From the IMG/VR virus record IMGVR_UViG_2630968543_000002: DNA of 41,923 bases. One strand, given 5' to 3'. A program made the position numbers and the translations under genes. Positions 16,379 through 40,635 of the stretch are shown here, piece after piece. The notes under the pieces are model-generated. The model was given only the letters and a program-made list of their open reading frames with translations. It was not told the DNA's origin and did not search any database. This stretch comes from a virus. Lineage: Duplodnaviria; Heunggongvirae; Uroviricota; Caudoviricetes. Positions within the stretch are counted from its first letter, which is position 1. Every line of letters begins with the position of its first letter.

Positions 16379-18058
16379 ATGGCGGAAACAACTAAAGAGC
16401 GATTGAACAAACAGTTCGCACAACTTGAAAGCGAGCGTCAGTCGTTCGAGCCGCACTGGCGCGAGTTGAGTGATTACATCAACCCGCGTGGTTCCCGCTT
16501 TCTGACTTCTGAGGTCAACCGTAACGATCGACGCAATACGCGCATTATTGATTCGACCGGGACTATGGCGGCGCGCACTCTCGCCAGCGGCATGATGTCT
16601 GGTATCACAAGCCCCGCCCGTCCGTGGTTTCGCCTGGCTACGCCAGATCCTGAAATGATGGATTATGGCCCTGTTAAGTTGTGGCTTGAGGCGGTGCAGA
16701 ACCGCATGAACGATATGTTCAATAAGTCGAATCTCTACCAGTCGCTGCCGCAGTTATACGGAAGCCTCGGCACATACAGCACTGGTGCAATGGCAGTGCT
16801 GGAGGATGACGAGGACATCATTCGCACAATGCCATTCCCGATAGGCAGTTACTACCTGGCTAACTCACCTCGTGGCAGTGTGGACACCTGTTTTCGCAAG
16901 TTCTCTATGACTGTTCGTCAGCTTGTTCAGGAGTTCGGGCTAAATAACGTCAGCGAATCTGTAAAAAGCATGTGGGAAAGCGGCACCTACGAGAAGTGGA
17001 TTGAAGTGATGCATTCGGTTTACCCGAACATTGACCGCGATACATCGAAGCTGGATAGCAAGAACAAGCCATTCAAATCGGTTTATTACGAGGTTGGTGG
17101 CGATAACGACAAGTTGTTGCGTGAGTCCGGATTCGATGAGTTTCCAATTATGGCTCCGCGCTGGGAAGTTAACGGCGAAGATGTTTATGGATCATCATGC
17201 CCGGGTATGCTGGCGCTTGGACCTGTTAAGGCATTGCAGCTTCTCCAGAAGCGTAAGTCGCAGTTGATTGATAAAGCCACCAATCCGCCGATGGTTGCTC
17301 CGAATTCCCTCAAGAATCAGCGCGCCTCCCTTCTTCCTGGTGACATCACGTATATCGATCAGATTACTGGTCAGGATGGTTTCAGGCCTGCTTATCTGGT
17401 TAACCCCAGTACAGCAGATTTGGTGGCAGACATTCAGGACACTCGTCAAATCATTAACAGCGCCTACTTTGTCGATCTGTTCATGATGTTGCAGAACATC
17501 AATACCCGCTCGATGCCTGTGGAAGCGGTGATCGAAATGAAAGAAGAAAAACTTCTGATGTTGGGGCCGGTTCTGGAGCGCCTGAACGACGAATGTCTTA
17601 ATCCTCTCATTGATCGCTCTTTCTCGATGATGGTGCGTAAAAACATGCTGCCGCCACCGCCAGACGTGATGGAAGGTATGCCCCTGAAGGTCGAATACAT
17701 TTCCGTCATGGCTCAGGCGCAGAAGTCTATCGGCCTGTCCAGTCTGGCGTCCACGGTTAACTTCATTGGTCAACTTGCGCAAGCGAAACCAGAAGCTCTC
17801 GACAAACTCAACGTTGATCAGGCGATCGATGCATTCGCTGATATGTCCGGAGTGTCTCCAACCGTCATTGTTCCGCAGGAACAGGTTGAGCAGGCTCGCC
17901 AGCAACGGGCACAGCAACAACAGCAGCAACAAATGATGGCGATGGGGATGGCGGCGGCACAGGGTGCTAAGACGCTAAGCGAAGCTAAAACTTCGGATCC
18001 GAGTGTTTTGTCAGCTATGGCGAATGCAGTTAGTGGTCAGGGTGGGCAATCACAATGA
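16379..18058 (+). CDS. Portal protein (T7 gp8-like head-to-tail connector)
   Basis: 559-aa ORF directly after terminase; Gln/Met/Ala-rich C-terminus (QQQQQQQMMAMGMAAAQGA) resembles the T7 gp8 C-terminus as recalled. Confidence 0.8.
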   Translation: MAETTKERLNKQFAQLESERQSFEPHWRELSDYINPRGSRFLTSEVNRNDRRNTRIIDSTGTMAARTLASGMMSGITSPARPWFRLATPDPEMMDYGPVKLWLEAVQNRMNDMFNKSNLYQSLPQLYGSLGTYSTGAMAVLEDDEDIIRTMPFPIGSYYLANSPRGSVDTCFRKFSMTVRQLVQEFGLNNVSESVKSMWESGTYEKWIEVMHSVYPNIDRDTSKLDSKNKPFKSVYYEVGGDNDKLLRESGFDEFPIMAPRWEVNGEDVYGSSCPGMLALGPVKALQLLQKRKSQLIDKATNPPMVAPNSLKNQRASLLPGDITYIDQITGQDGFRPAYLVNPSTADLVADIQDTRQIINSAYFVDLFMMLQNINTRSMPVEAVIEMKEEKLLMLGPVLERLNDECLNPLIDRSFSMMVRKNMLPPPPDVMEGMPLKVEYISVMAQAQKSIGLSSLASTVNFIGQLAQAKPEALDKLNVDQAIDAFADMSGVSPTVIVPQEQVEQARQQRAQQQQQQQMMAMGMAAAQGAKTLSEAKTSDPSVLSAMANAVSGQGGQSQ

Positions 18059-18351
18059 CAGATTACGAAGACGATCAACTGAAAGAAGAAAACGCCCGTA
18101 AGCAACGTGACATGGCACAGCGTGAAATTGATGACATTCGCTTTGTCATGAGCAGTGAACAGGGGCGTCGCGTTGTCTGGTCGGTGCTGGAGAAAGGCCG
18201 GGTGTTTTCCGCTATCTCTCCGATGGATGCCATGGCAATGGCATTTAATGAGGGGCAACGCAATCTGGCGCTGGAACTGTTTCAGCGCGTTATGGCGCAT
18301 TGCCCTGAACAGTATTTGAAGATGGCCAAAGAGGCCAGTGAACAGGAGTGA
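18055..18351 (+). CDS. Hypothetical virion-module protein (98 aa)
   Basis: ATGA overlap with the portal stop. Confidence 0.5.
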   Translation: MTDYEDDQLKEENARKQRDMAQREIDDIRFVMSSEQGRRVVWSVLEKGRVFSAISPMDAMAMAFNEGQRNLALELFQRVMAHCPEQYLKMAKEASEQE

Positions 18352-18353
18352 TC

Positions 18354-19049
18354 ATGAGTTTATTTGAGCGTTTGCTGTATCGCCGTCTTTGCAATGAGCA
18401 ACAAGTCGATGGTGGGGCAGCACCGGCTGCGTCAGAACCGTCAGCGCATGCAGGTGATAACCCTGCTCCAGCTGGTGATCCATCACAACAGGAAGGTGAT
18501 AAGCCACAACCTGTTGTTGATGTCGATAAACCTGATGATGAAAAAAAATCTGAAAACGATAAGCAGGGTGAAAAAAAGGACGGCGATAAACCAGAGGGTG
18601 CGCCGGAGAAGTACGAATTTCATGCTGCCGAAGGCGTAGAGCTGGATACAGAAGCGTTGAAGGAATTCGAGCCAGTGGCGCGAGAACTTAACCTGACCAA
18701 CGAGCAAGCGCAAAAGCTGGTTGATGCTTATCCGAAGATTCTGGCAGGTGTTCAGCAGCGCCAGGCAGAAGCCTGGCAGAAAACAACCGAGCAGTGGGCT
18801 GCGGATGTAAAAGCTGACAAAGAAATCGGTGGCGACAAGTTGATTTCTAACCTTAGCGCCGCACAGCGTGCGCTTGACCAGTTCGGGACACCTGAACTCA
18901 AAGAATATCTGAACACCACCGGGCTGGGTAATCACCCTGATCTGGTCAAAACGTTCGTGAAAATCGGAAAGGCGATGTCTGAAGATGGCATGGTCACCGG
19001 TGGTAATGAAGGCCAGCGTAGTGCGGCCGAAGTGCTCTATGGCAAATAA
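18354..19049 (+). CDS. Putative scaffolding / capsid assembly protein
   Basis: Position between portal and major capsid; highly acidic Lys/Asp/Glu-rich N-terminal half; GGAG Shine-Dalgarno. Confidence 0.65.
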   Translation: MSLFERLLYRRLCNEQQVDGGAAPAASEPSAHAGDNPAPAGDPSQQEGDKPQPVVDVDKPDDEKKSENDKQGEKKDGDKPEGAPEKYEFHAAEGVELDTEALKEFEPVARELNLTNEQAQKLVDAYPKILAGVQQRQAEAWQKTTEQWAADVKADKEIGGDKLISNLSAAQRALDQFGTPELKEYLNTTGLGNHPDLVKTFVKIGKAMSEDGMVTGGNEGQRSAAEVLYGK

Positions 19050-19057
19050 GAGAGGAA

Positions 19058-20050
19058 ATGACAATGGCTGTTAAAGGCTTAACTGCGCTAACGCTGGCTG
19101 ACTGGGGTAAGCGCGTCGATCCAGATGGGAAAGTCGATAAGATTATCGAGCTTCTCGGTCAAACTAACCCGATCCTTCAGGATATGCCTTTTGTCGAAGG
19201 TAACCTTCCTACCGGACACAAAACCACCATTCGTTCTGGTTTACCTTCAGCTACCTGGCGTTTGCTGAACTATGGCGTACAGCCAAGCAAATCAACCACA
19301 GTGCAGGTAACCGATTCCGTTGGCATGCTGGAAACCTATGCTGAAGTCGATAAGTCACTGGCTGATCTGAACGGTAATACCGCCGAATTCCGCCTGTCTG
19401 AAGACCGCGCATTTATTGAAGCGATGAATCAGCAGATGGCGCAGACGCTGTTTTATGGTGATTCCAGCGTTAACCCTCAGCAGTTTATGGGACTGTCCTC
19501 CCGCTATTCCAGCCTGTCTGCGGGTAATGCTCAGAACATCATTGATGCTGGTGGCACGGGTACAGATAACACCTCAATCTGGTTAGTGGTGTGGGGCGAA
19601 AACACCGTGCATGGCATCTTCCCGAAAGGGAAGAAGGCTGGCATCCAGATGGAAGATAAAGGCCAGGTGACACTGGAAGATGCTAATGGCGGCAAGTACG
19701 AAGGCTATCGCACCCATTACAAATGGGATAACGGACTTGCTCTGCGTGACTGGCGTTATGTTGTTCGCATTGCAAACATTGATGTCAGCAATCTTTCAGA
19801 ACCTTCCTCTGCCGCAAATATTGCGAAGTTGATGGTTAAAGCACTGCATCGCATTCCAAACCGTGGCATGGGCCGCCCGGTGTTCTACATGAACCGCACT
19901 GTAGGCCAGGCTCTTGATCTGCAGTCTCTGGAGAAAACATCTCTGGCGATTAGCGTAAAAGAGACTGAAGGCGAGTGGTGGACGTCATTCCGTGGTGTAC
20001 CAATCCGTGAAACTGATGCGCTTCTGGAAACAGAAGCCCGCGTGGTGTAA
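19058..20050 (+). CDS. Major capsid protein
   Basis: 330-aa ORF following the scaffold gene; GAGAGG Shine-Dalgarno; size and position typical of a T7-like or HK97-fold major capsid protein. Confidence 0.75.
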   Translation: MTMAVKGLTALTLADWGKRVDPDGKVDKIIELLGQTNPILQDMPFVEGNLPTGHKTTIRSGLPSATWRLLNYGVQPSKSTTVQVTDSVGMLETYAEVDKSLADLNGNTAEFRLSEDRAFIEAMNQQMAQTLFYGDSSVNPQQFMGLSSRYSSLSAGNAQNIIDAGGTGTDNTSIWLVVWGENTVHGIFPKGKKAGIQMEDKGQVTLEDANGGKYEGYRTHYKWDNGLALRDWRYVVRIANIDVSNLSEPSSAANIAKLMVKALHRIPNRGMGRPVFYMNRTVGQALDLQSLEKTSLAISVKETEGEWWTSFRGVPIRETDALLETEARVV

Positions 20051-20101
20051 CGCCTGTTATTAACCTGTGGGTCGCAACAGGCCCACTAATGGAGAAAGAA
20101 G

Positions 20102-20539
20102 ATGATCACCGACAAACTGTTGATGTTCTCCGAAGCACAGGCGGTAACTGATACCGCGGCTTCTACTGACGTAATCGATCTCGGTCCAATTGACGGAAAC
20201 CGTCGCGATATCGGCGTGGGTTATCCGCTTGAGTTTTGGGCGCTGGTTAACGAAGCCGCCACGGCAAGTGGTGAGGCAACTGTAAACATCCAGTTGCAGA
20301 CGAGTGAGAATAACAGCTCATGGTCCACTATTTATGATAGTGGCGCACTGGCAAAGGCCACCCTGACAGCAGGTAAGCGAGTTGTTTCTGCAAAGGTGCC
20401 AGCCGGTGTTCAGCGATATCTGCGTGTTAACTACTCCGTCGCAACTGGCCCACTAACGGCTGGCAAATTCACTGCGGGTATCAATCTTGATGTTGATGCC
20501 AATACGCCGTATCCGATCCGCTCAAAAGTAACTGGTTAA
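20102..20539 (+). CDS. Hypothetical structural protein (145 aa), possible capsid decoration or adaptor
   Basis: GGAG Shine-Dalgarno; position after the major capsid gene. Confidence 0.5.
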   Translation: MITDKLLMFSEAQAVTDTAASTDVIDLGPIDGNRRDIGVGYPLEFWALVNEAATASGEATVNIQLQTSENNSSWSTIYDSGALAKATLTAGKRVVSAKVPAGVQRYLRVNYSVATGPLTAGKFTAGINLDVDANTPYPIRSKVTG

Positions 20540-20549
20540 GGTGATATTG

Positions 20550-20885
20550 ATGTCAGGTGAGAAACCAAGATACCGCGTTCTGCGCCTCTCTCATATCCAT
20601 AACACTCTGTGGCCGGAGGGGGCAGAAATCGAATACGAAGGTGAGCCAGGTAGCGCACTGGAACCTGTTAACGATGCAGCCAGACAGGCAAAAGCAAAAG
20701 TTGCAGGAAAGGTGTCAATGGCAGCAACCAGCACCAAAATCATCAACGATGTGTCAGATGATGGTGAACTGGATAAGCTCCGTGAAGAGTACAAATTGCT
20801 CTTTAACGAGAAGCCACACCATAACGCCAAAGCAGAAACGCTCCGCGAGAAGATCGCAGATAAGCGTAAAGAACTGGGCGTGTAA
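20550..20885 (+). CDS. Hypothetical structural-module protein (111 aa)
   Basis: ATG at 20550 with AAGGTGA upstream; followed by a terminator. Confidence 0.5.
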   Translation: MSGEKPRYRVLRLSHIHNTLWPEGAEIEYEGEPGSALEPVNDAARQAKAKVAGKVSMAATSTKIINDVSDDGELDKLREEYKLLFNEKPHHNAKAETLREKIADKRKELGV

Positions 20886-20902
20886 GCCTCGCGAATCAGA
20901 CA

Positions 20903-20923
20903 AGGGGCTTCGGCCCCTTTATT
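20903..20923 (+). terminator. Rho-independent terminator or attenuator inside the structural module
   Basis: AGGGGC-TTCG-GCCCCT hairpin followed by TTATT. Confidence 0.55.
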
Positions 20924-20935
20924 GCAGGAGTGTAT

Positions 20936-21259
20936 ATGGAACTCGTAAACCTCAAAACCGGCACTGACAGCTACCAGGATGAGAGCGGAGAAACCAGAAC
21001 TCGCGATGAATACCCGTGGGGGCTGTGCATCACGCTGAATAACGACACATTGAATAAGCTGAAGGCGCAACCTCAGGGCGTCGGAACAGAAGTGATGATA
21101 ACTGCAAAGGCTGTTATTCGAGGCCTGTCTGCCAGAGAAACTGACGATGGTGTTAATCGCAGCGCCGATCTGCAGATCACTGATATGGCAATCGCTCCTG
21201 TTTCCGGTGATGTAGAAAAATCAGCGGCTGAAACTCTGTACGGCAATGGGGGTGAGTAA
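20936..21259 (+). CDS. Hypothetical structural-module protein (107 aa)
   Basis: GCAGGAG Shine-Dalgarno 5 nt upstream of ATG. Confidence 0.5.
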   Translation: MELVNLKTGTDSYQDESGETRTRDEYPWGLCITLNNDTLNKLKAQPQGVGTEVMITAKAVIRGLSARETDDGVNRSADLQITDMAIAPVSGDVEKSAAETLYGNGGE

Positions 21260-21864
21260 TGGCCTCTGTAGTAGAGATCTGCAATCGCGCGCTGTCCAAT
21301 ATTGGCAACAGCCGCAGCATTAACAGCCTGACGGAAGCCAGCAAGGAAGCGGGGGAATGTTCGCTGCACTTTGAGGCCTGCCGTGATGCTGTGCTTTCTG
21401 ATTTTGACTGGAACTTTGCTACCAAACGCGTGGCGCTTGCAGATACGAGCAATCCACCGCCTGACTGGGAATATGCGTACCAGTACCCGTCCGATTGTCT
21501 GCGCATTACTGAAATTATGCTTCATGGTGTACGCAATCCAACAGCAGCAATGCGCGTTCAGTACGAAGTTGGTGCAGACACCAACGGAACAGGAAAGTTG
21601 ATCTACACAGACCAGCCGCAGGCATGGCTCAAGTATGTCTCTCGCGTTACAGATGTGAACATGTTTGATGCCATTTTTATGGAGGCGCTGGCCTGGCGTC
21701 TTGCGGCAGCTATTAACATGGCGCTTACTGGGAATGCAGACCTCGGTACGTTTGCCCTCAATATGTACAATCGCGTGATTCTTAGTGCTGGCTCGCATAG
21801 CCAGAATGAATCACAGGAACCACAGCCACCGGTTGACGAGTTTACCATTGCGAGGTTGTCCTGA
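21259..21864 (+). CDS. Tail tubular protein A-like (T7 gp11 position)
   Basis: 201-aa ORF; N-terminal pattern (CNRALSNIGNSRSINSLTE) resembles T7 gp11 (VNDILASIGEPPVSTLEGD) as recalled; TAATG overlap. Confidence 0.6.
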   Translation: MASVVEICNRALSNIGNSRSINSLTEASKEAGECSLHFEACRDAVLSDFDWNFATKRVALADTSNPPPDWEYAYQYPSDCLRITEIMLHGVRNPTAAMRVQYEVGADTNGTGKLIYTDQPQAWLKYVSRVTDVNMFDAIFMEALAWRLAAAINMALTGNADLGTFALNMYNRVILSAGSHSQNESQEPQPPVDEFTIARLS

Positions 21865-24335
21865 TGGCTATCAGTTGGATCCAGCCCAGCTTTGCCGGTG
21901 GTGAGATTGGACCGTCGTTGTACGGTCGTATCGACATGGCGAAGTACCAGGTGGCATTGCGCAAGTGCGATAACTTTATCGTGCGGCAGTATGGCGGCGT
22001 TGAGAATCGACCTGGTACGCGTTTTGTCGGTGCCGCCAAATACCCAAATCGGAAATGCCGCCTGATCCCGTTCCAGTTCTCGACGGTTCAGACTTATGCT
22101 CTGGAGTTCGGACACCAGTACATGCGCGTTATCAAAGATGGTGCGTTGGTGCTGAACAGCAGCAATGTTATTTATGAAATTGCCACGCCATATACTGAAG
22201 CCGATCTGTTCCGAATTAAATTCACGCAAAGCGCCGACGTGCTTACGCTGGTTCACCCGGCATACCCGCCGAAAGAGTTGCGCCGCTATGCGCATGACAA
22301 CTGGCAACTGGTTGATGTGGTAACGAAGAACGGGCCATTTGAAGATATCAATATTGACGAGTCAGTGACGGTTTATGCCAGCGCCAGCACCGGGACAATT
22401 ACGTTAACGGCAAGCGCCTCTATTTTTGGCGCGGAGCAGGTAGGCAAATTGTTCTATCTGGAACAGCCTGCAGTGGATTCTGTGCCGGTATGGGAAACCA
22501 GCAAGAGTACGTCGATTGGCGATATTCGCCGTGCAGACAGTAACTACTATCGCGCCGTTACAGCAGGCAAAACAGGTACTTTGCGCCCTTCGCATACAGA
22601 AGGCACATCATGGGATGGCTGGGGCGGATCCGGTGATGATGATACTGGCATTGAGTGGGAATATCTGCACAGTGGTTTTGGCATTGCCCGTATCTCTGCT
22701 GCAAATGGCACTACTGCAACTGCCGAGGTGATTTCCTATATTCCTTCGCAGGTCGTTGGCGAGGATAATGCCAGCTATAAATGGGCTAAATATGCCTGGA
22801 ACAGTGTTAATGGTTATCCTGGCACTGTTGTTTATTATCAACAACGTCTTTACTTCGCCGCATCGACTGCGTTCCCTCAGACTATCTGGGCCAGCCGTAC
22901 CGGGGATTATAAGGATTTTGGCAAAAGCAATCCTACGCAGGATGACGACAGAATTATCTACACCTATGCCGGACGTCAGGTTAATGAGATCCGCCACCTG
23001 ATTGATGTTGGTTCGCTGGTGGCGCTGACTTCCGGAGGTGAGTACGTCATCACCGGCGACCAGAACAAAGTGTTAACCCCATCATCATTTGCATTCAGCT
23101 CTCAGGGATCAAATGGCTCAAGCAACGTCCCACCAATTGCTGTGGCGAATATTGCTCTGTTCGTCCAGGAGAAAGGCAGCGTTGTCCGTGATCTGGCCTA
23201 CTCATTCGATGTTGACGGCTATCAGGGGAACGACCTGACCATCCTTGCCAATCATCTTTTTCAGAAGCACAGCATTGTTGACTGGTGCTTCTCGATTGTC
23301 CCTTACTCCAGCGCCTTCTGCATTCGTGATGACGGCAAATTACTGGTGATGACCTATCTGCGTGATCAACAGGTTTTTGCATGGGCACCACAGTCCAGTA
23401 CCGGAAAATATGAAAGCACATGCAGTATCAGCGAAGGCAATGAAGATGCGGTGTATTTCGTCGTTAACCGAACTATTAACGGGCAAACAGTGAGATACAT
23501 CGAGCGACTGTCCAGCCGTTTATTTACCAGCGATGAAGATGCTTTCTTTGTTGATTCTGGCCTTAGCTATGATGGAAGAAATACGTCTGACAGAACGATG
23601 ATCATCACTGGTGGTTCTGGCGAATGGGATTACCGCGCGGAATATACAATCAGTGTTTCTGGTGGTGCGTACTTCACCAGTAGTGATGTCGGTGCTCAAC
23701 TACAGTTCCCTTATACTGGAACTGATCCTGATACTGGCGATGAAGTGTCAAAAGAATTACGTTGCGACATTATTTCTGTAACCAGCAATACCGCTGTAGT
23801 GGTTCGTGCTAACAGGAACGTCCCACCATCCCTCAGGAATGCGGCCACCACGAACTGGCAGATGGCGCGCCGGACATTTGGAGGCCTGTCTCATCTTGAA
23901 GGCCAGACCGTAAACATTCTCTCTGATGCGAACGTGGAACCACAGAAAGTTGTTTCCGGAGGTGCCGTCACGCTGGAATCACCGGGGGCTGTAGTGCACA
24001 TCGGCCTACCAATAACTGCTGAATTCGAAACACTGGATATCAACATTAACGGACAGGAAACGCTGCTGGACAAAAAACAGGTGATCCCGTCCGTTACTCT
24101 GGTTGTGAATGCCAGCCGCGGCATCTGGGCGACTACGCCCGGCGGCAAATGGTACGAATATCCACAGCGTGAATTCGAGTTCTACGATGATCCTGTTGAT
24201 GATGCTACCGGAAAAGTAGAAGTGAAACTGGACAGTAACTGGGGCAAAAACGGACGTGTAAAAATCCGTCAGCTTGACCCGTTGCCGCTGTCTGTTCTTG
24301 CCGTTATTCCTCGCCTTACTGTTGGGGGATTCTGA
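21864..24335 (+). CDS. Tail tubular protein B-like / nozzle protein (T7 gp12 position)
   Basis: 823-aa ORF following the gp11-like gene; size and order match the T7-like tail tube. Confidence 0.6.
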   Translation: MAISWIQPSFAGGEIGPSLYGRIDMAKYQVALRKCDNFIVRQYGGVENRPGTRFVGAAKYPNRKCRLIPFQFSTVQTYALEFGHQYMRVIKDGALVLNSSNVIYEIATPYTEADLFRIKFTQSADVLTLVHPAYPPKELRRYAHDNWQLVDVVTKNGPFEDINIDESVTVYASASTGTITLTASASIFGAEQVGKLFYLEQPAVDSVPVWETSKSTSIGDIRRADSNYYRAVTAGKTGTLRPSHTEGTSWDGWGGSGDDDTGIEWEYLHSGFGIARISAANGTTATAEVISYIPSQVVGEDNASYKWAKYAWNSVNGYPGTVVYYQQRLYFAASTAFPQTIWASRTGDYKDFGKSNPTQDDDRIIYTYAGRQVNEIRHLIDVGSLVALTSGGEYVITGDQNKVLTPSSFAFSSQGSNGSSNVPPIAVANIALFVQEKGSVVRDLAYSFDVDGYQGNDLTILANHLFQKHSIVDWCFSIVPYSSAFCIRDDGKLLVMTYLRDQQVFAWAPQSSTGKYESTCSISEGNEDAVYFVVNRTINGQTVRYIERLSSRLFTSDEDAFFVDSGLSYDGRNTSDRTMIITGGSGEWDYRAEYTISVSGGAYFTSSDVGAQLQFPYTGTDPDTGDEVSKELRCDIISVTSNTAVVVRANRNVPPSLRNAATTNWQMARRTFGGLSHLEGQTVNILSDANVEPQKVVSGGAVTLESPGAVVHIGLPITAEFETLDININGQETLLDKKQVIPSVTLVVNASRGIWATTPGGKWYEYPQREFEFYDDPVDDATGKVEVKLDSNWGKNGRVKIRQLDPLPLSVLAVIPRLTVGGF

Positions 24336-33019: not shown

Positions 33020-33031
33020 ATCGCGCCTCCT

Positions 33032-33812: not shown

Positions 33813-33966
33813 GGCGATCACCTTTGTAGTTAGGTTAATCACCACCGCTGAGACCAATCAGATGGTGGTGAACTGTGCAGAGTTGGTCTTACCGGCTACA
33901 AAGGAACCCGGCGCACCTTTCGGTGCCCCCACACAGCCCACCATAGAATAGGTGCGCTTTACACAT

Positions 33967-34080
33967 AAAAAAACCGCTTATGCGGCATATGTGCCTCTGT
34001 AGTAATCCGGGAGACCAATCCCGGCACTGGATTTTGCCAGTGCCCGATTACTATGGCACAAGAGGAGTGCGATGTAAATT
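33967..34080 (-). ncRNA. Candidate structured leader or small RNA upstream of the Bro-N gene (tentative)
   Basis: Minus-strand promoter (-35 TTGATT, 17-bp spacer, -10 TATCAT) abutting the operator at 34080..34094; two stable hairpins (34007..34024 and 34024..34043) and a short GC stem followed by seven U (33967..33985). Confidence 0.25.
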
Positions 34081-34094
34081 TACCGAAAAGGTAA
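34080..34094. promoter_or_regulatory. Perfect operator palindrome TTACC-GAAAA-GGTAA
   Basis: Direct reading. Confidence 0.55.
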
Positions 34095-34172
34095 TGATAA
34101 GCGCGAAAAAACATTAAAATCAACCGTATTTGGTTGATTGCGTTTAACGCTTGATCACCTGAAAGCAAGATA

Positions 34173-34187
34173 TTACCTTTAAGGTAA
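34173..34187. promoter_or_regulatory. Perfect operator palindrome ATTACC-TTTAA-GGTAAT preceded by AGATAT (-10-like), 21 nt upstream of the 34208 start codon
   Basis: Direct reading; core 15-mer identical to the site at 33032. Confidence 0.55.
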
Positions 34188-34207
34188 TGTTATTGTGAGG
34201 AAAAGCA

Positions 34208-34936
34208 ATGGAAGTTTTCTGGATAGTTGTTGGTGTGGTTGCGGTGATTATTTACGTTATCAACCAGAACAAGACTAAGATCTCTGATCGTACGGTCGTT
34301 AATCAGAACAAAACGATAAAGACCGAAGATGGGGAGATAACGATTAATCGTACACAGGTGATAGAGCACACATCTACTCAGTTTCAAAAAACTGGAGGTA
34401 ACGCTCCTGATATTTCCGTACCTCCTGCTTATGATAGTGCGGTAATCCAGACATATTATAAACAGCAGGAGTTAGCAAAAGAGAGGCAACTGATTCAGCC
34501 AAAGCCGTTTACAGCTGAGCTTCCACCTGGAGTGTCAACGCGTCCGGCATATCATGGAAGATTCCCTGGTGATGACATATCGTCTCAGTCATTTAAAAAA
34601 GCACCTCAGGCAGTATCAGAGCCAGCAAGAATATCTTCTGTATCGCCGCCAAAAGAAGAATCAGCTAACAGAGTTTCAAGCGGTAGCAAGCAGTGCTTGC
34701 GATGCAGAATAAACCTTCCATATGAAAAATTCAGGAAATCGTCAAAAAATCCGGATGGATTGACTAAGTGGTGTGCAAGGTGTCTCGATGGCCCAAAGAA
34801 TACACGTCATATGAAGTGGTGCCCAATTTGTAATGTCCGCAGAAAACGAACCAGCTTTTACCCTAATAATCAAAATGCGGACGGCTTAATGGCATGGTGC
34901 AAAACGTGCTGGGACGAGCACAAAGCGAAACGATAG
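34208..34936 (+). CDS. Membrane-anchored protein with two C-terminal zinc-ribbon-like repeats (unknown function)
   Basis: N-terminal hydrophobic helix (EVFWIVVGVVAVIIYVI); two repeats of C-x2-C-x16-17-DGL-x3-WC-x2-C; GAGG Shine-Dalgarno. Confidence 0.65.
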   Translation: MEVFWIVVGVVAVIIYVINQNKTKISDRTVVNQNKTIKTEDGEITINRTQVIEHTSTQFQKTGGNAPDISVPPAYDSAVIQTYYKQQELAKERQLIQPKPFTAELPPGVSTRPAYHGRFPGDDISSQSFKKAPQAVSEPARISSVSPPKEESANRVSSGSKQCLRCRINLPYEKFRKSSKNPDGLTKWCARCLDGPKNTRHMKWCPICNVRRKRTSFYPNNQNADGLMAWCKTCWDEHKAKR

Positions 34937-34952
34937 GCCGCTCTTGCGGCCT
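34937..34952. terminator. Hairpin between convergent genes (possible bidirectional terminator)
   Basis: GGCCGC-TCTT-GCGGCC followed by TTTAAATTT. Confidence 0.45.
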
Positions 34953-34958
34953 TTAAAT

Positions 34959-35216
34959 TTACCTGGTTTGTTTTCGTAATTGTTCGGCACAATAGTCGAG
35001 ATGTGTTTGCAGATCCTGCATAGACATCTGTGAGCTGGTGACGTAGTTAATCAGTGCAGTCAGTTCGGCAAGTGGGCCATCGACATTAAATCCATCCTTA
35101 TTGAGATCCCGGAGTAATTTCATCAAGTGCGATCCCTCCACCAGTGACCTGACGCCTCCCGGCGTGTGAATCCTTTCGGTAAATCCGTCTTCCAGTGGAT
35201 AGTGATACTGCTGCAT
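34959..35216 (-). CDS. Hypothetical protein (85 aa), paralogue of the C-terminal domain of the Bro-N protein
   Basis: ATG at 35216 with GGAG upstream; TERIHTPGGVRSLVEGSHLMKLLRDLNKDGFNVDGPLAELT aligns with RSLIHSPSGVLGLTENSLLMNLLNQLQEDGHDVSGAAAELT. Confidence 0.55.
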   Translation of the reverse strand: MQQYHYPLEDGFTERIHTPGGVRSLVEGSHLMKLLRDLNKDGFNVDGPLAELTALINYVTSSQMSMQDLQTHLDYCAEQLRKQTR

Positions 35217-35292
35217 CTTATCTTCTCCATGCAATAACTGTATATTTATACAGTAGCAAATAATTTGTTTGCTATCCAGCACGTTTTGCAAA

Positions 35293-35307
35293 TTACCTGA
35301 AAGGTAA
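35293..35307. promoter_or_regulatory. Perfect operator palindrome ATTACC-TGAAA-GGTAAT between divergent gene 34959..35216 and the tailspike; TATGTGGTT motif and a GGTAAT half-site follow at 35339..35358
   Basis: Direct reading. Confidence 0.55.
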
Positions 35308-35411
35308 TATCTATTAGTATTCACAGTATTTCTATCCATATGTGGTTTTTCAGGTAATAGAATAACCAGATATGCGGCGCAACGGGTGCTGCGACTATCT
35401 GGAGATTTAAC

Positions 35412-38400
35412 ATGACGGTCTCAACCGAAGTTGACCACAACGAATACACAGGTAACGGCGTTACGACATCGTTTCCGTATACTTTTCGAATTTTCAGAAA
35501 ATCCGACCTGGTTGTTCAGGTGTCTGACCTGAACGGGAACGTAACAGAATTGGTTCTGGATACCGGTTATACGGTAACTGGGGCGGGCACTTATAGTGGC
35601 GGTTCTGTGGTTCTTCCGTCGCCGCTTGCTACTGGATGGAGAATTACGATAGATCGTGTGCTTGATGTAGTGCAGGAGACAGACCTTCGCAATCAGGGAA
35701 AGTTTTTCCCCGAAGTGCATGAAGATGCCTTTGACTACCTGACGATGCTGATCCAGCAATGTTTTGGATGGTTCAGACGTGCATTGATGAAACCATCTTT
35801 GCTTGCAAAATATTACGATGCAAAGCAAAACAGAATTTCTAACCTTGCAGATCCATCACTTGAACAGGACGCTGTAAATAATCGCTCAATGCGTAATTAT
35901 GTCGATGCTGCAATCGCCGGGGTTGTTGGTGGTTTTGGTTGGTTTATTCAGTATGGTTCTGGGGCAGTATACCGAACGTTCCAGGATAAAATGCGTGATG
36001 CTATTAGCCCCAAAGATTTTGGAGCTGTTGGTGATGGTATAAATGACGATTCTACTGCAATAAGCGCGTGCCTTGAAGCCTCATCTCCAGGTTATAAAAT
36101 TGACGGATTAGGGCTTACTTTTAAAGTATCAACTCTTCCGGATGTCAGCCGATTTAAAAATGCTCGTTTTTTATTTGAGAGAATACCGGGTCAGCCTCTT
36201 TTTTATGCTTCTGAAGATTTTATCCAGGGAGAGTTATTTAAAATTACAGATACACCGTGGTACAACGCCTGGACGCAGGATAAAACGTTTGTATATGACA
36301 ATGTCATCTATGCGCCTTTTATGGCTGGAGACCGCCATGGTGTAAATAACCTCCATGTTGCATGGGTTCGCTCAGGAGATGACGGGAAGACCTGGACAAC
36401 GCCGGAATGGCTTACAGATTTACATGAAAACTATCCCACAGTTAACTATCACTGCATGAGTATGGGGGTTGTCAGAAATCGCCTTTTTGCTGTAATTGAG
36501 ACGCGGACCGTGAGCGGAAATAAACTGCAGGTTGCAGAGTTGTGGGATCGTCCAATGAGTCGCAGCCTTCGCGTTTATGGTGGTATAACGAAAGCAGCAA
36601 ATCAGCAAGTCGCTTATATTCGCATTACTGATCACGGATTATTTGCTGGTGATTTTGTCAACTTCTCAAACTCTGGTGTTACAGGTGTTACCGGGAATAT
36701 GACGGTGACTACTGTTATTGATAAAAATACTTTTACAGTTACGACGCAAAATACTCAGGTTGTGGATCAGAATAACGAGGGTAGATACTGGAGTTTTGGT
36801 ACATCATTTCACTCGTCACCATGGAGAAAAACCAGTCTTGGAACTATTCCTTCTTTTGTTGACGGAAGCACTCCTGTTACTGAGATTCACAGTTTTGCGA
36901 CGATTAGCGATAACAGTTTTGCTGTTGGCTACCATAATGGTGATATTGGTCCACGCGAGCTTGGGATACTCTATTTCTCTGATGCTTTCGGTTCTCCTGG
37001 TAGCTTTGTTCGCAGACGCATACCTGCAGAATATGAGGCGAATGCATCTGAGCCATGTGTAAAATATTATGATGGCATTCTGTATCTGACGACCAGGGGG
37101 ACATTAAGTACTCAACCCGGTAGTTCATTGCACAGAAGCTCTGATTTAGGTGCATCATGGAATTCTCTTCGCTTCCCAAATAATGTTCATCACTCAAACC
37201 TTCCTTTTGCCAAAGTTGGCGATGAGCTGATTATTTTTGGCAGTGAGCGCGCATTTGGTGAGTGGGAAGGAGGAGAACCTGATAACCGTTATGCAGGAAA
37301 TTATCCAAGAACATTTATGACCAGAGTTAACGTCAATGAGTGGAGTCTGGATAATGTAGAGTGGGTTAATGTTACTGATCAGATTTATCAGGGCGGAATA
37401 GTTAACTCTGCGGTTGGTGTTGGTTCAGTTTGTATCAAAGACAACTGGCTGTACTACATTTTCGGTGGGGAAGACTTTCTAAACCCATGGAGCATAGGGG
37501 ATAACAACAGAAAATATCCTTATGTTCACGATGGTCACCCGGCTGATTTGTATTGTTTCAGGGTGAAAATTAAACAGGAAGAATTTGTTTCAAGGGATTT
37601 TGTCTACGGAGCCACTCCTAACAGAACGCTTCCTACTTTTATGTCGACGTCCGGCGTGAGGACGGTTCCTGTACCCGTTGATTTCACAGATGATGTTGCC
37701 GTCCAGTCACTGACTGTCCATGCAGGTACATCAGGACAAGTTCGCGCGGAAGTCAAACTGGAGGGCAATTACGCCATTATTGCGAAGAAAGTACCGTCTG
37801 ATGATGTTACCGCTCAGAGATTAATCGTTAGCGGCGGTGAAACAACGTCTTCAGCAGATGGTGCAATGATAACGTTGCATGGTTCCGGAAGCAGTACTCC
37901 ACGTCGCGCGGTATATAACGCACTCGAACATCTTTTTGAGAACGGAGATGTTAAACCTTATCTTGATAATGTAAATGCTCTTGGTGGTCCGGGAAACAGG
38001 TTCTCGACAGTTTATCTTGGCTCCAATCCTGTGGTTACCAGTGACGGAACATTAAAGACAGAGCCGGTCTCTCCTGACGAAGCATTGCTGGATGCCTGGG
38101 GTGACGTCAGGTATATCGCTTATAAATGGCTGAACGCTGTCGCTATAAAGGGAGAAGAAGGGGCGAGGATACATCATGGTGTAATCGCGCAGCAACTTCG
38201 TGATGTTCTTATTTCTCACGGACTCATGGAAGAAGAAAGCACAACATGCCGCTATGCCTTTCTTTGCTATGACGATTATCCCGCAGTATATGATGACGTC
38301 ATTACTGGCCAAAGGGAAATTCCGCTGACTGATAATGACGGGAGCATCATTGTTGATGAGGATGATAATCCAGTGATGGTAATGGAAGACATCATTGAGC

Positions 38401-38531
38401 GCGTTGAAATAACGCCAGCAGGATCTAGATGGGGGGTCAGACCTGATCTCTTATTCTATATCGAGGCAGCATGGCAGCGCAGAGAAATGGATAAGATAAA
38501 AGAGCGGATTCAGTCTCTGGAAGAACGTTAA
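35412..38531 (+). CDS. Tailspike / receptor-binding protein with predicted beta-helix and C-terminal chaperone-like domain
   Basis: 1039-aa ORF; conserved N-terminal particle-binding region (TGNGVTTSFPYTFRIF), pectate-lyase-like start (ISPKDFGAVGDGINDDSTAI); GGAG Shine-Dalgarno. Confidence 0.8.
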   Translation: MTVSTEVDHNEYTGNGVTTSFPYTFRIFRKSDLVVQVSDLNGNVTELVLDTGYTVTGAGTYSGGSVVLPSPLATGWRITIDRVLDVVQETDLRNQGKFFPEVHEDAFDYLTMLIQQCFGWFRRALMKPSLLAKYYDAKQNRISNLADPSLEQDAVNNRSMRNYVDAAIAGVVGGFGWFIQYGSGAVYRTFQDKMRDAISPKDFGAVGDGINDDSTAISACLEASSPGYKIDGLGLTFKVSTLPDVSRFKNARFLFERIPGQPLFYASEDFIQGELFKITDTPWYNAWTQDKTFVYDNVIYAPFMAGDRHGVNNLHVAWVRSGDDGKTWTTPEWLTDLHENYPTVNYHCMSMGVVRNRLFAVIETRTVSGNKLQVAELWDRPMSRSLRVYGGITKAANQQVAYIRITDHGLFAGDFVNFSNSGVTGVTGNMTVTTVIDKNTFTVTTQNTQVVDQNNEGRYWSFGTSFHSSPWRKTSLGTIPSFVDGSTPVTEIHSFATISDNSFAVGYHNGDIGPRELGILYFSDAFGSPGSFVRRRIPAEYEANASEPCVKYYDGILYLTTRGTLSTQPGSSLHRSSDLGASWNSLRFPNNVHHSNLPFAKVGDELIIFGSERAFGEWEGGEPDNRYAGNYPRTFMTRVNVNEWSLDNVEWVNVTDQIYQGGIVNSAVGVGSVCIKDNWLYYIFGGEDFLNPWSIGDNNRKYPYVHDGHPADLYCFRVKIKQEEFVSRDFVYGATPNRTLPTFMSTSGVRTVPVPVDFTDDVAVQSLTVHAGTSGQVRAEVKLEGNYAIIAKKVPSDDVTAQRLIVSGGETTSSADGAMITLHGSGSSTPRRAVYNALEHLFENGDVKPYLDNVNALGGPGNRFSTVYLGSNPVVTSDGTLKTEPVSPDEALLDAWGDVRYIAYKWLNAVAIKGEEGARIHHGVIAQQLRDVLISHGLMEEESTTCRYAFLCYDDYPAVYDDVITGQREIPLTDNDGSIIVDEDDNPVMVMEDIIERVEITPAGSRWGVRPDLLFYIEAAWQRREMDKIKERIQSLEER

Positions 38532-38557: not shown

Positions 38558-38837
38558 ATCAAAAACGGAGTTGGTGAAAAGTTATCTTTGAATTCTATCA
38601 TGAATCAGTACGTATTTTAAATACATGTTCAGGTTTATTACACCATAGCATTATTAAATACAAAATTAAGTCTATGGTTCCTGTACAACTGCCCCCACTC
38701 TGCTGGCTCGTTCTGTAAAATCATTAGTACTTTTATTGAGATATATGATATGGAACAATAATGATTCATATATGGTTTACTATGCGGGTTTAGTCATCAA
38801 TAATTGACTGGCTTATAGATAGTAAACAGGAGAAAGT

Positions 38838-39242
38838 ATGTCTGCTCAAGTAACAAGTGAGCAATTAAATCAGTTGCTTAGTTTTGGTTCTCTTGCTGCG
38901 GTTATTGCAGGTGTCCCTCCGGAGGTTGCTTTAGGGGCTTTGGCTGGGGCGGTGATTTTTGTTACCTCTGCAGTAGAGTACCCCATCCGTCGCCGGGTGC
39001 TCCTGTCGATGCTCAGCTTTCTTTGCGGCCTTCTCTTTTACAAACCAGCAGCATCAATTCTTATCGGCATAGCTAGCCTGATCCCTACCATCACGCAGGA
39101 CTCTTTTGAAAAAGGGATTGTTTTCTCTGCAGGCGCATTCGTGTCAGCAATTGTCGCTGTGCGTATTGGTATATGGCTCTATCACCGTTCCGATAATCCA
39201 CGCGAGTTAATTCCGGGGAGAAAAGACGATGGTAACGCATGA
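38838..39242 (+). CDS. Holin (multi-pass membrane protein)
   Basis: 134-aa ORF with several hydrophobic segments and charged C-terminus; AGGAGAAAG Shine-Dalgarno; first gene of the lysis cassette. Confidence 0.65.
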   Translation: MSAQVTSEQLNQLLSFGSLAAVIAGVPPEVALGALAGAVIFVTSAVEYPIRRRVLLSMLSFLCGLLFYKPAASILIGIASLIPTITQDSFEKGIVFSAGAFVSAIVAVRIGIWLYHRSDNPRELIPGRKDDGNA

Positions 39243-39537
39243 GTTTTTTTTGCTTATCACCAATGCAGTTATTTGCACTGGCATAGCAATTCGCGTTGTC
39301 ACATTCCGGCGTAACGGCTCTCAACACCGAAGGTGGGGAGGATGGCTTGCTTATTTCCTGATTGTTGCTGCGGCCAGTATTCCTGTTCGAGTCGCCTATG
39401 CAATCTGGTTACGTACGCCAATGGCTGTGGATTTATCTGAGGTCATTATTAACGCTGTCATGCTTGCTGCGGTTCTTAAAACTCGCGGTAACGTCGTTCA
39501 AATTTTCAAAACAACGAGGTCTAAACATGGAGATTAA
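39229..39537 (+). CDS. Second small membrane protein of the lysis cassette (holin-like or antiholin)
   Basis: 102-aa ORF with three hydrophobic segments; overlaps the holin 3-prime end by 14 nt. Confidence 0.5.
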
Positions 39538-40156
39538 ACAATTCCAGCGTGCTGCTGGTATTAGCGAGGCGCTGGCCGAACGCTGGTTCTTGCATATAAC
39601 TTCTGCGATGAAAGAGTTTGGAATCAGCAAACCCGAAGATCAGGCAATGTTTATTGCTCAGGTCGGGCATGAGTCTGGGGGCTTCACCCGGTTGCAGGAA
39701 AATTTCAACTACAGTGTCACCGGACTGGCTAACTTCGTTCGGACTGGGCGTCTCACCCAGGGGCAGGCTAATGCACTGGGTCGCCGTGCTGGTGAAGCAG
39801 CATTACCACTTGAGCGACAGCGCGCTATCGCCAATCTGGTGTACAGCAAACGCATGGGGAACAATGCCCCTGGTGATGGCTGGAACTACCGTGGGCGCGG
39901 ACTTATCCAGATTACCGGCTTGAATAACTATCGTGACTGCGGAAACGGTCTGAAAGTTGACCTGCTGGAGAATCCTGAACTGCTGGCACAGGACGAATAC
40001 GCGGCCCGTAGCGCGGCCTGGTTCTTCTCCAGCAAAGGCTGCATGAAGTATACCGGCGATATTGCACGTGTAACTCTGATTATCAATGGTGGCCGGAACG
40101 GCATTGATGACCGTCGCGCCCGATACATCATTGCCAGTAAGGTGCTGGCTGTATGA
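39527..40156 (+). CDS. Endolysin, glycoside hydrolase family 19 (chitinase-like lysozyme)
   Basis: ATG at 39527 (ORF opens at 39362); GH19-like motifs [10 protein letters not shown] and [19 protein letters not shown]. Confidence 0.85.
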
Positions 40157-40635
40157 TCTGGGCATTCGTAAAAGCATACTGGAAACAGTTGATTATCGTG
40201 GCGATGCTTGCTGTTCTTGCCACATCAGGAGTTGTTGCCTGGAATGTGCACGGCAGTCGTCAGTACGACGCCGGGTATGCTCAGGCGAAAGAAGACCGCA
40301 AAACTGAAGATGAGAGAGTTCGTCAGCACTACGAACAGGAGAAAGCGATCAATGAACGTGAATCGCAGCAGAGGATCGACCAGGCGCGCAATGATGCTCT
40401 TGATGCTGCCGCTCGCGCTGGCCGGTTGCAGCAACAGCTCGTTGCCATCCGTGAGCAGCTCAGGCACTATAACGCCATTGTCGGCGCTGGGTCGTCAGCC
40501 GCAGACACCGGAGTTTTGCTTGCCGACGTGCTCAGCAAATCTCTCGAGAGAAACAGACAACTGGCAGAGTATGCTGACCGGGCAGCCGAAGCCGGAAGAG
40601 TCTGCGAAAAACAGTACGACACCCTGACCAGATAG
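40153..40635 (+). CDS. Rz: Rz-like inner-membrane spanin
   Basis: ATGA overlap with the endolysin stop; N-terminal transmembrane helix followed by coiled-coil. Confidence 0.7.
40352..40627 (+). CDS. Rz1: Rz1-like outer-membrane lipoprotein spanin embedded in the +1 frame of Rz
   Basis: Lipoprotein signal with lipobox ([26 protein letters not shown]); Pro-rich mature part; alternative start at 40391. Confidence 0.6.
   Translation: MNVNRSRGSTRRAMMLLMLPLALAGCSNSSLPSVSSSGTITPLSALGRQPQTPEFCLPTCSANLSRETDNWQSMLTGQPKPEESAKNSTTP

Follow-up and report, generated by a model that had tools for sequence, protein, structure and literature searches.

What kind of phage joins lambdoid early genes to a virion module in the gene order of T7 is the question raised by the IMG/VR virus record IMGVR_UViG_2630968543_000002, whose full length of 41,923 nucleotides (nt) is called the window here. 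An earlier note, made from the letters of the window, had described such a mosaic in positions 16379-40635 and had pointed to a resemblance to temperate podophages of the epsilon15/phiV10 type. Our analysis indicates that the window very probably holds, apparently in full, the genome of a temperate Uetakevirus podophage of the phiV10/epsilon15 type, which lies as a prophage at the 3' end of guaA, probably in a K1-capsulated Escherichia coli. This kind of phage is already known, and a K1-specific member, ZX5, has already been characterised. The genome plan is the published epsilon15/phiV10 layout, and the mosaic contains no new junction, as the same arrangement is present in epsilon15, phiV10 and ZX5.

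With regard to the phage records, a megablast of 16379-40635 against 50,697 of them returned HEMP4 (83% of the range covered, 97.2% identity), phiv142-3 (82%, 96.8%), phiV10 (78%, 96.2%) and epsilon15 (31%, 76%), with PAS61, ZX5 and Enterobacter phage Tyrion also among the best matches. The early half (1-16378) has the same set of phages as its best matches. The records of phiV10, epsilon15 and ZX5 each carry a Uetakevirus taxonomy line, so that the assignment to epsilon15/phiV10-type temperate podophages was correct. The earlier note had considered siphovirus or myovirus families as the best matches that would contradict it, and the structural module contains no pointer to either.

The whole-genome comparison that had been proposed was performed by computing intergenomic similarities in the VIRIDIC manner, which gave 78.9% to ZX5, 75.4% to phiV10, 39.9% to epsilon15 and 0.2% to T7. 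The usual genus criterion of the International Committee on Taxonomy of Viruses is a nucleotide similarity of about 70% or more over the genome. The values for phiV10 and ZX5 lie above this level, while epsilon15 reaches only 39.9%. As overall similarity stays below 95%, including that to ZX5, the window would count as a separate species within the genus, a status that is routine for mosaic prophages.

In the blastn map, window position 12759 corresponds to coordinate 1 of the phiV10 genome. The packaging and virion block (12759-32351) is approximately 97% identical to phiV10, and 15455-32351 aligns with phiV10 2654-19550 at 97.4% identity. Expressed as identity multiplied by coverage, the likeness to phiV10 amounts to 95% for packaging and virion genes, 64% for the early region and 24% for the accessory island with the tailspike. 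Among 5426 complete E. coli genomes, the late half (16379-40762) finds some match in 706 and is at least 80% covered in 111; the best genome matches include O2:K1 avian pathogenic strains and human isolates (97.5-98.3% identity). The early half finds some match in 3606 of the 5426 genomes, but is covered to at least 80% in only 13. A conserved virion block and a promiscuous early region are therefore observed, with very different rates of evolution.

The two ends of the prophage and the host genes beyond it are defined by the following features.

1-1251, plus strand: P4-type tyrosine integrase, 416 amino acids (aa) (Pfam Arm-DNA-bind_3, Phage_int_M and Phage_integrase)
40746-40762, plus strand: attR core ATTGAGTGGGAATGATT, copy of the guaA 3' end and right prophage end
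40853-41392, minus strand: host chromosome yfgI (RefSeq gene name)
41408-41923, minus strand: host chromosome yfgH (RefSeq gene name)

The Arm-DNA-bind_3 domain is typical of P4-type integrases, and the integrase gene is 98.5% identical in DNA to phiV10 26927-28177. Since positions 1-2799 correspond to phiV10 26927-29725 in the blastn map, the integrase start codon is the first base of the window. At the other end, phiV10 homology ends at 40762, and ATTGAGTGGGAATGATT is present exactly once in the window, at 40746-40762. A core of 17 base pairs (bp) at guaA has been published for ZX5, and the copy in the window matches it exactly (PMC9782041). The genes yfgI and yfgH are found in 5421 of the 5426 complete E. 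coli genomes, and strain MS20653 has a syntenic prophage flanked by guaA and yfgI. With the integrase at base 1, the end of phiV10 homology and the att core at 40762, and yfgI and yfgH beyond, the prophage is seen from the integrase gene past attR; attL and guaA would be located just left of the window, outside it.

The six-frame map of open reading frames (ORFs) exhibits a leftward block, a long rightward block, a mixed-strand stretch at 32-35 kb, an ORF of 1039 aa and a short rightward cassette. The resulting order (integrase, recombination, immunity, replication, terminase, portal to core, accessory genes, tailspike, lysis, att) agrees gene for gene with the Uetakevirus records; where gene starts differed from the mechanical ORF list, they were set by the collinear phiV10 annotation. 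All the genes named in the earlier note are present where it placed them. Its mosaic stands as a lambdoid early half joined to a virion half in T7 order, although the range given for it covers the virion and lysis half only, and the late block also includes the terminase genes at 12799-14945, beyond that range.

The portal-to-core part of the late block comprises the following genes.

16158-16364, plus strand: 68-aa gene before the portal gene, without T7 counterpart (ORF map)
16379-18058, plus strand: portal, T7 gp8 family (Pfam Head-tail_con PF12236, E 4e-187)
18055-18351, plus strand: Bbp19-like small protein, without T7 counterpart (Pfam Phage_Bbp19, E 2.8e-17)
18354-19049, plus strand: putative scaffolding protein, 231 aa (position between the portal and capsid genes)
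19064-20050, plus strand: major capsid protein (Pfam GP7, E 2e-149)
20102-20539, plus strand: Bbp16-type cement protein (Pfam Bbp16)
20550-20885, plus strand: unknown 111-aa protein, among the head shell genes
20936-21259, plus strand: gp10-type capsid staple protein (Pfam Gp10-like)
21259-21864, plus strand: tail adaptor, 201 aa, T7 gp11 equivalent or tail tubular A (predicted structure and Foldseek)
21864-24335, plus strand: tail nozzle, 823 aa, T7 gp12 equivalent or tail tubular B (PDB match to the Carin-1 nozzle 8ck1_A, E 2.6e-216)
24335-24799, plus strand: gp13-like internal virion protein, 154 aa (PHROG 308, the same as T7 gp13; hhalign 96%, E 1e-8)
24799-25344, plus strand: gp14-like internal virion protein, 181 aa, starting MCDPVIAGG (Pfam T7_gp14, E 2.5e-7, above threshold)
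25344-32136, plus strand: three large virion proteins of 837, 600 and 824 aa (PHROG families)
25344-27857, plus strand: the 837-aa protein, with a transglycosylase-like domain at about residues 248-403 (PDB matches 9vvp Gp29 and endolysin 7q47)
29662-32136, plus strand: the 824-aa protein, epsilon15 gp17 homologue (matches T7 gp16 residues 758-1157)

The portal matches the Carin-1 portal in the PDB (8ck0, E 1.7e-178), and its C-terminus, QQQQQQQMMAMGMAAAQG, is visibly like that of T7 gp8, QQKMAQQSMQMGMDNGAAALAQG. The Head-tail_con family and this likeness bear out the gp8-like C-terminus that had been noticed. The PHROG cross-matches are reciprocal, as T7 gp8 finds the family of the window portal (E 1.5e-31) and the window portal finds the T7 family (E 3.4e-24). 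In hhalign, the portal family and the gp8 family align over 438 columns with a probability of 40%.

Every database checked labels the 231-aa protein, whose gene lies between those of the portal and the capsid, as 'peptidase' or 'protease', although no peptidase family was matched in Pfam or NCBIfam. Its AlphaFold2 (AF2) model exhibits a disordered, charged N-terminal third rich in Pro, Ala, Glu and Lys and an all-helical C-terminal part, with a predicted local distance difference test score (pLDDT) of 45. Its position and this low-confidence model favour the scaffold claimed in the earlier note over the protease named by the databases, and the protein is likely to be a scaffold rather than a protease. 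A literature search for a scaffold assignment in epsilon15 yielded nothing useful.

The capsid gene was found where expected, with its GP7 family match, and the protein matches those of BPP-1 (3j4u, E 8e-130), Carin-1 (8cjz, E 1.8e-87) and epsilon15 (gp7, 3j40, E 6e-85) in the PDB. The capsid shell and decoration genes are assigned from these matches to the BPP-1/epsilon15 type and not to that of T7, and T7 has no counterparts of the cement and staple proteins. The DNA of the capsid, cement and staple genes (19013-21250) did not match epsilon15, although that of the flanking virion genes does. This gap, together with a capsid nearer to that of BPP-1, indicates that the virion block itself is mosaic within the genus.

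The model of the tail adaptor (AF2, pLDDT 86) matches the Carin-1 connector (E 4e-16) and T7 gp11 (7box; E 1.3e-6, template modelling score 0.57-0.60) in Foldseek, as well as the LME-1 and PhiM1 adaptors and tail tubular protein A of KP32. Sequence matches were obtained to the Carin-1 connector (E 6e-26), the LME-1 adaptor (E 9.5e-5) and the LME-1 nozzle (E 1.7e-15). The nozzle belongs to a large family, with 18,294 representatives of 50%-identity clusters at E <=0.001, and the hidden Markov model of this family picks up T7 gp12 (E 1.8e-6 in hmmsearch; 70% over 233 columns in hhalign); with a smaller alignment the hhalign result is weaker (15%). The fold match of the adaptor to gp11 and the profile match of the nozzle to gp12 confirm the tail tubular proteins A and B of the earlier note, and its gp14-like protein is equally supported by the MCDPVIAGG translation and by the Pfam T7_gp14 threshold. 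In published work, LME-1's portal-tail complex closely resembles that of T7, and Carin-1 is called 'another T7-like virus' (PMC12407071).

The depth of the kinship with T7 was assessed by an all-against-all comparison of profiles, in which 15 window families, built from diverse IMG/VR relatives, were set against 12 T7 families. The T7 profiles were built from close relatives, and secondary structure was not used in hhalign. The only pairs above 4% probability were cognate ones, namely gp8 (40%), gp12 (15%), gp13 (96%), gp14 (40%) and gp16 (34%), and hmmsearch recovered these pairs except gp14. The gp16 pair joins the 824-aa family to T7 gp16 residues 758-1157 with weak scores (hhalign E 4e-4, hmmsearch E 3.8e-4). 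No counterpart of T7 gp15 was detectable by profile comparison, in which the 600-aa protein matched no T7 family. Searches of PDB sequences with the gp14-like, 600-aa and 824-aa proteins returned nothing meaningful, and no helpful name came from NCBIfam for ten virion and island proteins.

The 837-aa protein is the homologue of epsilon15 gp15. From synteny, and from a study in which epsilon15 is named as one of the podophages that have gp14-16-like ejection genes and a T7-like core stack (PMC8954989), the 837-, 600- and 824-aa proteins are probably the ejected core proteins. The placement of the domains raises the possibility, which we put forward tentatively and consider rather doubtful, that the functions of T7 gp16 are split in Uetakeviruses, with the transglycosylase in the 837-aa protein and a relative of the channel-forming C-terminal half in the 824-aa protein. 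If this were the case, the ejected core would be a four-protein set (the gp14-like, 837-, 600- and 824-aa proteins), the apparently synteny-based pairing of epsilon15 gp16 with T7 gp16 (PMC8954989) would need revision, and the question of whether the last large protein is part of the tail tube or an ejection protein would be affected. The weak match suggests that the homologue of epsilon15 gp17, and not that of gp16, is the detectable relative of T7 gp16, which is only a mildly new point.

The likeness to T7 consists of profiles, fold and gene order only, concerns the portal, tail and core genes only, and reflects an ancient relationship. The T7-like order claimed in the earlier note holds for the portal, the scaffold position, the capsid, the adaptor, the nozzle, the gp13- and gp14-like proteins, the core, the tailspike and lysis, whereas the placement of the terminases and the type of capsid differ. 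Five genes absent from T7 are interleaved (16158-16364 and the genes of the Bbp19-like, Bbp16-like cement, 111-aa and gp10-like staple proteins). In P22-like and lambdoid genomes the terminase genes are upstream of the portal gene, while in T7 they follow the fibre gene. In the window they are upstream of the portal, with a small subunit of the Terminase_2 type, and the gap between them and the portal contains two further features.

12799-14945, plus strand: small and large terminase subunits (Pfam Terminase_2 for the small subunit; PHROG terminase large subunit; blastn to phiV10 1-2280)
15036-15455, minus strand: accessory gene, 139 aa (PHROG 4846, unknown function)
15654-15730, minus strand: tRNA-Arg(TCT), beside the 139-aa gene (ARAGORN)

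The PDB sequence search with the large terminase subunit returned nothing meaningful, and PADLOC assigned no defence family to the 139-aa accessory gene.

The early half proper (1-12758) carries, in addition to the integrase gene, the following genes.

1446-4727, minus strand: early-left genes for an MT-A70 methylase, PerC-like and AlpA-like proteins, RecT and an exonuclease (Pfam)
2796-3818, minus strand: RecT (Pfam)
3828-4727, minus strand: YqaJ-type exonuclease (Pfam)
5332-5916, minus strand: helix-turn-helix (HTH) repressor (Pfam HTH_3; PHROG repressor family)
6071-6301, plus strand: cro-like gene, 76 aa, facing the repressor gene (PHROG 'transcriptional repressor' family, E 5.6e-13)
6668-7483, plus strand: replication initiator with HTH_36 and DnaT domains (Pfam; PHROG replication-initiation)
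7465-8265, plus strand: lambda-P-type helicase loader (PF06992, E 1.5e-56; PHROG P-like loader)
8383-12758, plus strand: Ea/ead-type accessory genes, the most mosaic part of the genome (Pfam Ead_Ea22)
12417-12758, plus strand: epsilon15 gp49-like regulator (PHROG 'transcriptional regulator' family only)

This is a lambdoid layout, with divergent repressor and cro genes flanked by operators, recombination genes to the left and replication genes to the right. The Pfam and PHROG scans confirm the P4-type integrase, RecT with exonuclease, and repressor with cro that had been named. The O-like and P-like pair fared less evenly, as the P gene is a clear member of the lambda-P family, but the initiator is of the HTH_36 plus DnaT type, which places it outside the family of lambda O, and gives only partial matches to PHROG 'O-like' families (E 6e-19). 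Three adjacent tandem-repeat arrays with periods of 18, 24 and 12 nt lie inside the initiator gene (6965-7104) and are probably origin iterons, by analogy with those inside the lambda O gene.

Positions 8730-12760 are a patchwork of short segments 87-97% identical to Shiga toxin (Stx)-converting phages, lambda imm21, HK620 and SE1Spa. From such shared DNA patches and the matches in 3606 of the 5426 genomes, the early half belongs to the recombining lambdoid gene pool. In the early-left operon, 2800-4723 carries separate RecT and exonuclease genes approximately 80% identical to those of epsilon15, whereas phiV10, which is otherwise closer, has a fused RecE-RecT; by its sequence this segment is a recombination patch. 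On the early region, PADLOC matched the MT-A70 methylase and, weakly (E 0.0033), the ORF at 11416-12153, and found no defence family in the 270-aa ORF at 9828-10640. Outside the virion block no ORF of RNA- or DNA-polymerase size was found: none there exceeds 491 aa, and the largest early ORF is the 416-aa integrase.

At the far end of the genome, the tailspike and the lysis cassette form the last blocks before attR, as the earlier note had described.

35412-38531, plus strand: endosialidase tailspike, 1039 aa (Pfam End_N_terminal, End_beta_propel, End_beta_barrel, End_tail_spike and Peptidase_S74)
within 38838-40635, plus strand: two holin-like proteins (Pfam Phage_holin_8 and Phage_holin_3_7)
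39527-40156, plus strand: endolysin of glycoside hydrolase family 19 (Pfam Glyco_hydro_19)
40153-40635, plus strand: Rz (Pfam DUF2514)
40352-40627, plus strand: embedded Rz1 lipoprotein (lipobox LALAGC in the translation)

All five Pfam domains of the tailspike occur in order (E 2.5e-233 to 1.8e-10), and the protein shares 99.4% identity with its ZX5 counterpart. The part spanning residues 193-1039 has 95% identity with the CUS-3 endosialidase and, from about 193-201 on, approximately 62% with that of K1F, while the N-terminal 145 or so codons are phiV10-like DNA (83% identical). The tailspike is accordingly predicted to be a K1 polysialic-acid depolymerase with a Uetakevirus particle-binding N-terminus and an intramolecular chaperone at its C-terminus, and it has the appearance of a textbook module exchange joined at about residues 145-193. 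In the 306 bp after the tailspike gene (to 38837) there is no ORF of at least 60 aa, whereas phiV10 and epsilon15 carry surface-polysaccharide modification genes at this place. A phase-variable capsule O-acetyltransferase gene of the CUS-3 neuO type was sought beside the endosialidase gene and not found: heptanucleotide repeats are missing, and the island ORFs scanned gave no acetyltransferase match. The lysis cassette (38838-40635) is 88% identical to that of phiV10, with 38813-40762 corresponding to the phiV10 lysis region in the blastn map. The guanine-plus-cytosine (GC) content falls to 42-45% across 32-39 kb.

The stretch between the last core gene and the tailspike gene (32137-35411) was the insertion point of an accessory island according to the earlier note. 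The features of this stretch, and the palindromes discussed with it, are as follows.

32146-32323, plus strand, including the terminator: small membrane-protein gene, phiV10 p21 homologue (collinear with phiV10 19345-19522)
32306-32323: structural-operon terminator, stem AGGCCGC-N4-GCGGCCT (terminator scan and alignment)
32324-35339, mixed strands: variable accessory region
32391-32831, minus strand: 146-aa ORF
33120-33857, minus strand: Bro-N antirepressor (Pfam/PHROG)
34208-34936, plus strand: 242-aa zinc-ribbon protein (PHROG 6762, unknown function)
34935-34952: second copy of the terminator stem (terminator scan and alignment)
34959-35339, minus strand: epsilon15 gp19-like gene (Pfam/PHROG)
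5197, 5259, 5971, 8302, 8364, 12844, 12862, 16052, 33031, 34079, 34172 and 35292: operator palindromes, 17 nt each

Segments 32352-33116 and 34103-34958 are absent from phiV10 in the blastn map, and no phage record covers at least 80% of the accessory region, the best reaching 66%. We compared 36 IMG/VR relatives chosen by a nearly identical nozzle gene (the 80 IMG/VR loci retrieved by the nozzle were all 99-100% identical) and observed 17 match patterns in the first 2.2 kb after the last core gene. The absent segments and these patterns establish the junction between core and tailspike as the accessory insertion point, and the gap is a hypervariable accessory region shared across the lineage. 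A gene for a YafO toxin or an IS3 element is found in this region in some E. coli prophages. At the same position, epsilon15-like prophages carry hicA-like (HicA_toxin) and DUF1902 genes in Superficieibacter and KilA-N/ANT genes in Serratia.

The 242-aa protein, which exhibits two C-terminal zinc-ribbon-like motifs, belongs to a small family of 33 clusters. The two homologues compared in context, from Superficieibacter and Serratia, also lie between core and tailspike of an epsilon15-like prophage, on the strand opposite to that in the window (6001-6723 in locus L178; 6001-6645 in L179 and L180), and adjoin hicA-like/DUF1902 genes or KilA-N/ANT genes. None of the six island ORFs scanned with PADLOC matched a defence family. 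The two terminator copies bracket most of the accessory region, while epsilon15 has a single copy directly before gp19 and the tailspike gene. Compared with MS20653, its nearest genomic relative (locus L005, 11020-11714), the window lacks approximately 190 bp at 32240-32831, so that the minus-strand 91-aa and 146-aa ORFs overlap by 125 nt; this is possibly a small deletion.

A scan that allowed no more than one mismatch located the palindrome ATTACC-N5-GGTAAT at 12 sites in the window, where chance would give 0.05, and this motif is annotated as a repressor site in the RefSeq record of epsilon15. The copies are located in the immunity region (5197, 5259 and 5971), after the P gene, at the start of the small terminase gene and upstream of the portal operon, with three more in the island and one upstream of the tailspike gene. 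This placement suggests direct repressor control of late and accessory operons. The operators before late operons further suggest a control logic differing from the Q-driven single late operon of lambdoid phages. Terminator bracketing and an operator for each cassette may fit accessory genes being added pre-wired to repressor control.

Other readings of the locus have to be weighed against a Uetakevirus prophage. CUS-3 is the classic temperate podophage of K1 strains, and a K1 prophage of its P22-like lambdoid type might be expected from the tailspike, of which residues 193-1039 are 95% identical to the CUS-3 endosialidase, and from lambdoid early genes and DNA patches common to P22-like phages. 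However, this similarity starts only at residue 193 and the other virion genes are approximately 97% identical to those of phiV10; the portal belongs to the T7 gp8 family and the capsid to the GP7/BPP-1 family, the adaptor and nozzle match tail proteins of Carin-1, LME-1 and T7, and integration is at guaA through the Uetakevirus att core. A CUS-3-type identity was rejected on the phage megablast, the phiV10 blastn map and the Pfam structural families, and we consider it to have practically no chance of being correct. It is just as implausible that the mosaic is an artefact, either of two unrelated neighbouring elements or of a chimeric assembly. The two halves do behave very differently in database searches, and the GC content does fall to 42-45% across 32-39 kb. 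Nevertheless, the complete genomes of phiV10, epsilon15 and ZX5 exhibit the same arrangement from end to end, MS20653 carries it as a single prophage between guaA and yfgI, and the window contains one integrase, one att core and one operator motif across both halves. ZX5, moreover, was isolated as a phage able both to form plaques and to establish stable lysogens (PMC9782041).

A true member of the T7 group (Autographiviridae) with an acquired lysogeny module would explain the portal-to-fibre order, the homologues of gp8, gp11, gp12, gp13, gp14 and gp16, and lysis genes placed after the fibre gene. Autographiviridae are defined by a phage-encoded single-subunit RNA polymerase. As there is no ORF of this size outside the virion block and the early genes have other identities or no match, the window is not a member of this family; nucleotide similarity to T7 is 0.2% without a significant pairwise protein match, replication relies on an initiator with a lambda-P loader, the terminase genes precede the portal gene and include a Terminase_2-type small subunit, and the capsid and decoration proteins are of the BPP-1/epsilon15 type. 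Membership in the T7 group is thus highly improbable. A defective (cryptic) prophage would be compatible with the Uetakevirus classification. The approximately 190 bp that the window lacks at 32.3-32.6 kb relative to MS20653, and the missing O-antigen or capsule modification gene after the tailspike, which phiV10 and epsilon15 have, would fit such decay. In contrast, all genes of phiV10 and ZX5 from the integrase gene through Rz are matched by intact counterparts of full length, the identity of the virion block to that of phiV10 and of plaque-forming ZX5 is 97%, and the att core is intact, which makes a defective prophage unlikely.

Several points weigh against the description of the window as a complete Uetakevirus prophage with a T7-related virion module in a K1 host. 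Comparison of 22 window proteins with 17 T7 proteins (gp6.7-gp19) by phmmer and blastp gave no significant pairwise similarity. T7 gp9, gp10, gp11 and gp15 were not recovered in the profile comparison, so for the adaptor, homology to gp11 depends on a single structure prediction. At 15-40%, the hhalign probabilities are modest, and homology of the capsid to that of T7 would be a matter of the general HK97 fold only. The scaffold assignment is uncertain given the low confidence of the model (pLDDT 45), and the roles of the core proteins derive from synteny and the published listing of epsilon15. Completeness of the left end is deduced from MS20653, and the host is taken to be K1 on account of the tailspike and of the K1 strains that occur among the best genome matches.

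Based on these observations, the Uetakevirus genome can be viewed as a stable, lineage-wide mosaic of a lambdoid-style early half, terminases, a virion block, a leftward-transcribed accessory and antirepressor region, a modular tailspike and a holin-endolysin-spanin lysis cassette beside the attachment site, in which the early half would exchange DNA freely with lambdoid and P22-like prophages. Lysogeny would be held by the repressor acting at the 12 palindromes, which are predicted operators. By homology, the endosialidase tailspikes would bind and degrade the polysialic-acid K1 capsule, and the short tail of adaptor and nozzle would dock on the outer membrane. The core proteins, including the one with the transglycosylase domain, would then be ejected and build a DNA channel spanning the envelope, as in T7.

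The window carries little weight as a discovery, and its practical value lies in annotation. Structure-based names are given here for genes that RefSeq calls 'hypothetical' or 'peptidase', namely the adaptor, the nozzle, the gp13-, gp14- and gp16-like proteins and the probable scaffold. The gap between core and tailspike is the place to seek the accessory cargo of the lineage, such as antirepressors and toxin-antitoxin pairs. Temperate K1-specific phages are also relevant to therapies aimed at the capsule and to the biology of avian pathogenic E. coli and of strains that cause neonatal meningitis.

With regard to known systems, the closest solved structures are those of Carin-1, LME-1 and BPP-1, which serve as structural references only, as their hosts differ and their early regions are non-homologous. 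CUS-3 shares the catalytic endosialidase and the C-terminal chaperone domain with the window, but its N-terminal domain and the rest of its virion are unrelated. T7 shares the order of portal, scaffold position, capsid, adaptor, nozzle, gp13, gp14, large core proteins, fibre or spike, holin and Rz, with homology at the family or fold level for gp8, gp11, gp12, gp13, gp14 and the C-terminal half of gp16. Compared with T7, the window has three large core proteins instead of two, with the transglycosylase domain in the first of them and not in the gp16 homologue. Its terminase genes precede the portal gene, it encodes neither a phage RNA polymerase nor a DNA polymerase, and its phage is temperate.

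Epsilon15 is the type of the group, and its internal core has been seen by cryo-electron microscopy. It resembles the window in the order of its modules, in the ATTACC-N5-GGTAAT motif, in the att region beside the integrase gene, and in the homologous portal, adaptor, nozzle, gp13-gp17 and lysis genes. It differs in encoding a cytosine methylase and O-antigen conversion functions, and its gp18 and gp19 genes are separated by hardly any island. The phiV10 genome is collinear with the window and has the same integrase, repressor, replication and lysis genes and the same operator logic. In contrast, its tail fibre has an O157-specific C-terminus and is followed by the O-acetyltransferase gene oac, where the window has an endosialidase followed by nothing, its RecE and RecT are fused, and two segments of the window island are missing from it. 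ZX5, to which the records HEMP4 and phiv142-3 are related, differs from the window in its early region (identity multiplied by coverage of only about 52%) and in its set of accessory genes, which overlaps that of the window by only 36%. Nevertheless, ZX5 is likewise a temperate podophage, its genes are in the same order, and it integrates at the guaA 3' end through an identical 17-bp att core (PMC9782041); its packaging and virion block is alike to approximately 95% by the same measure.

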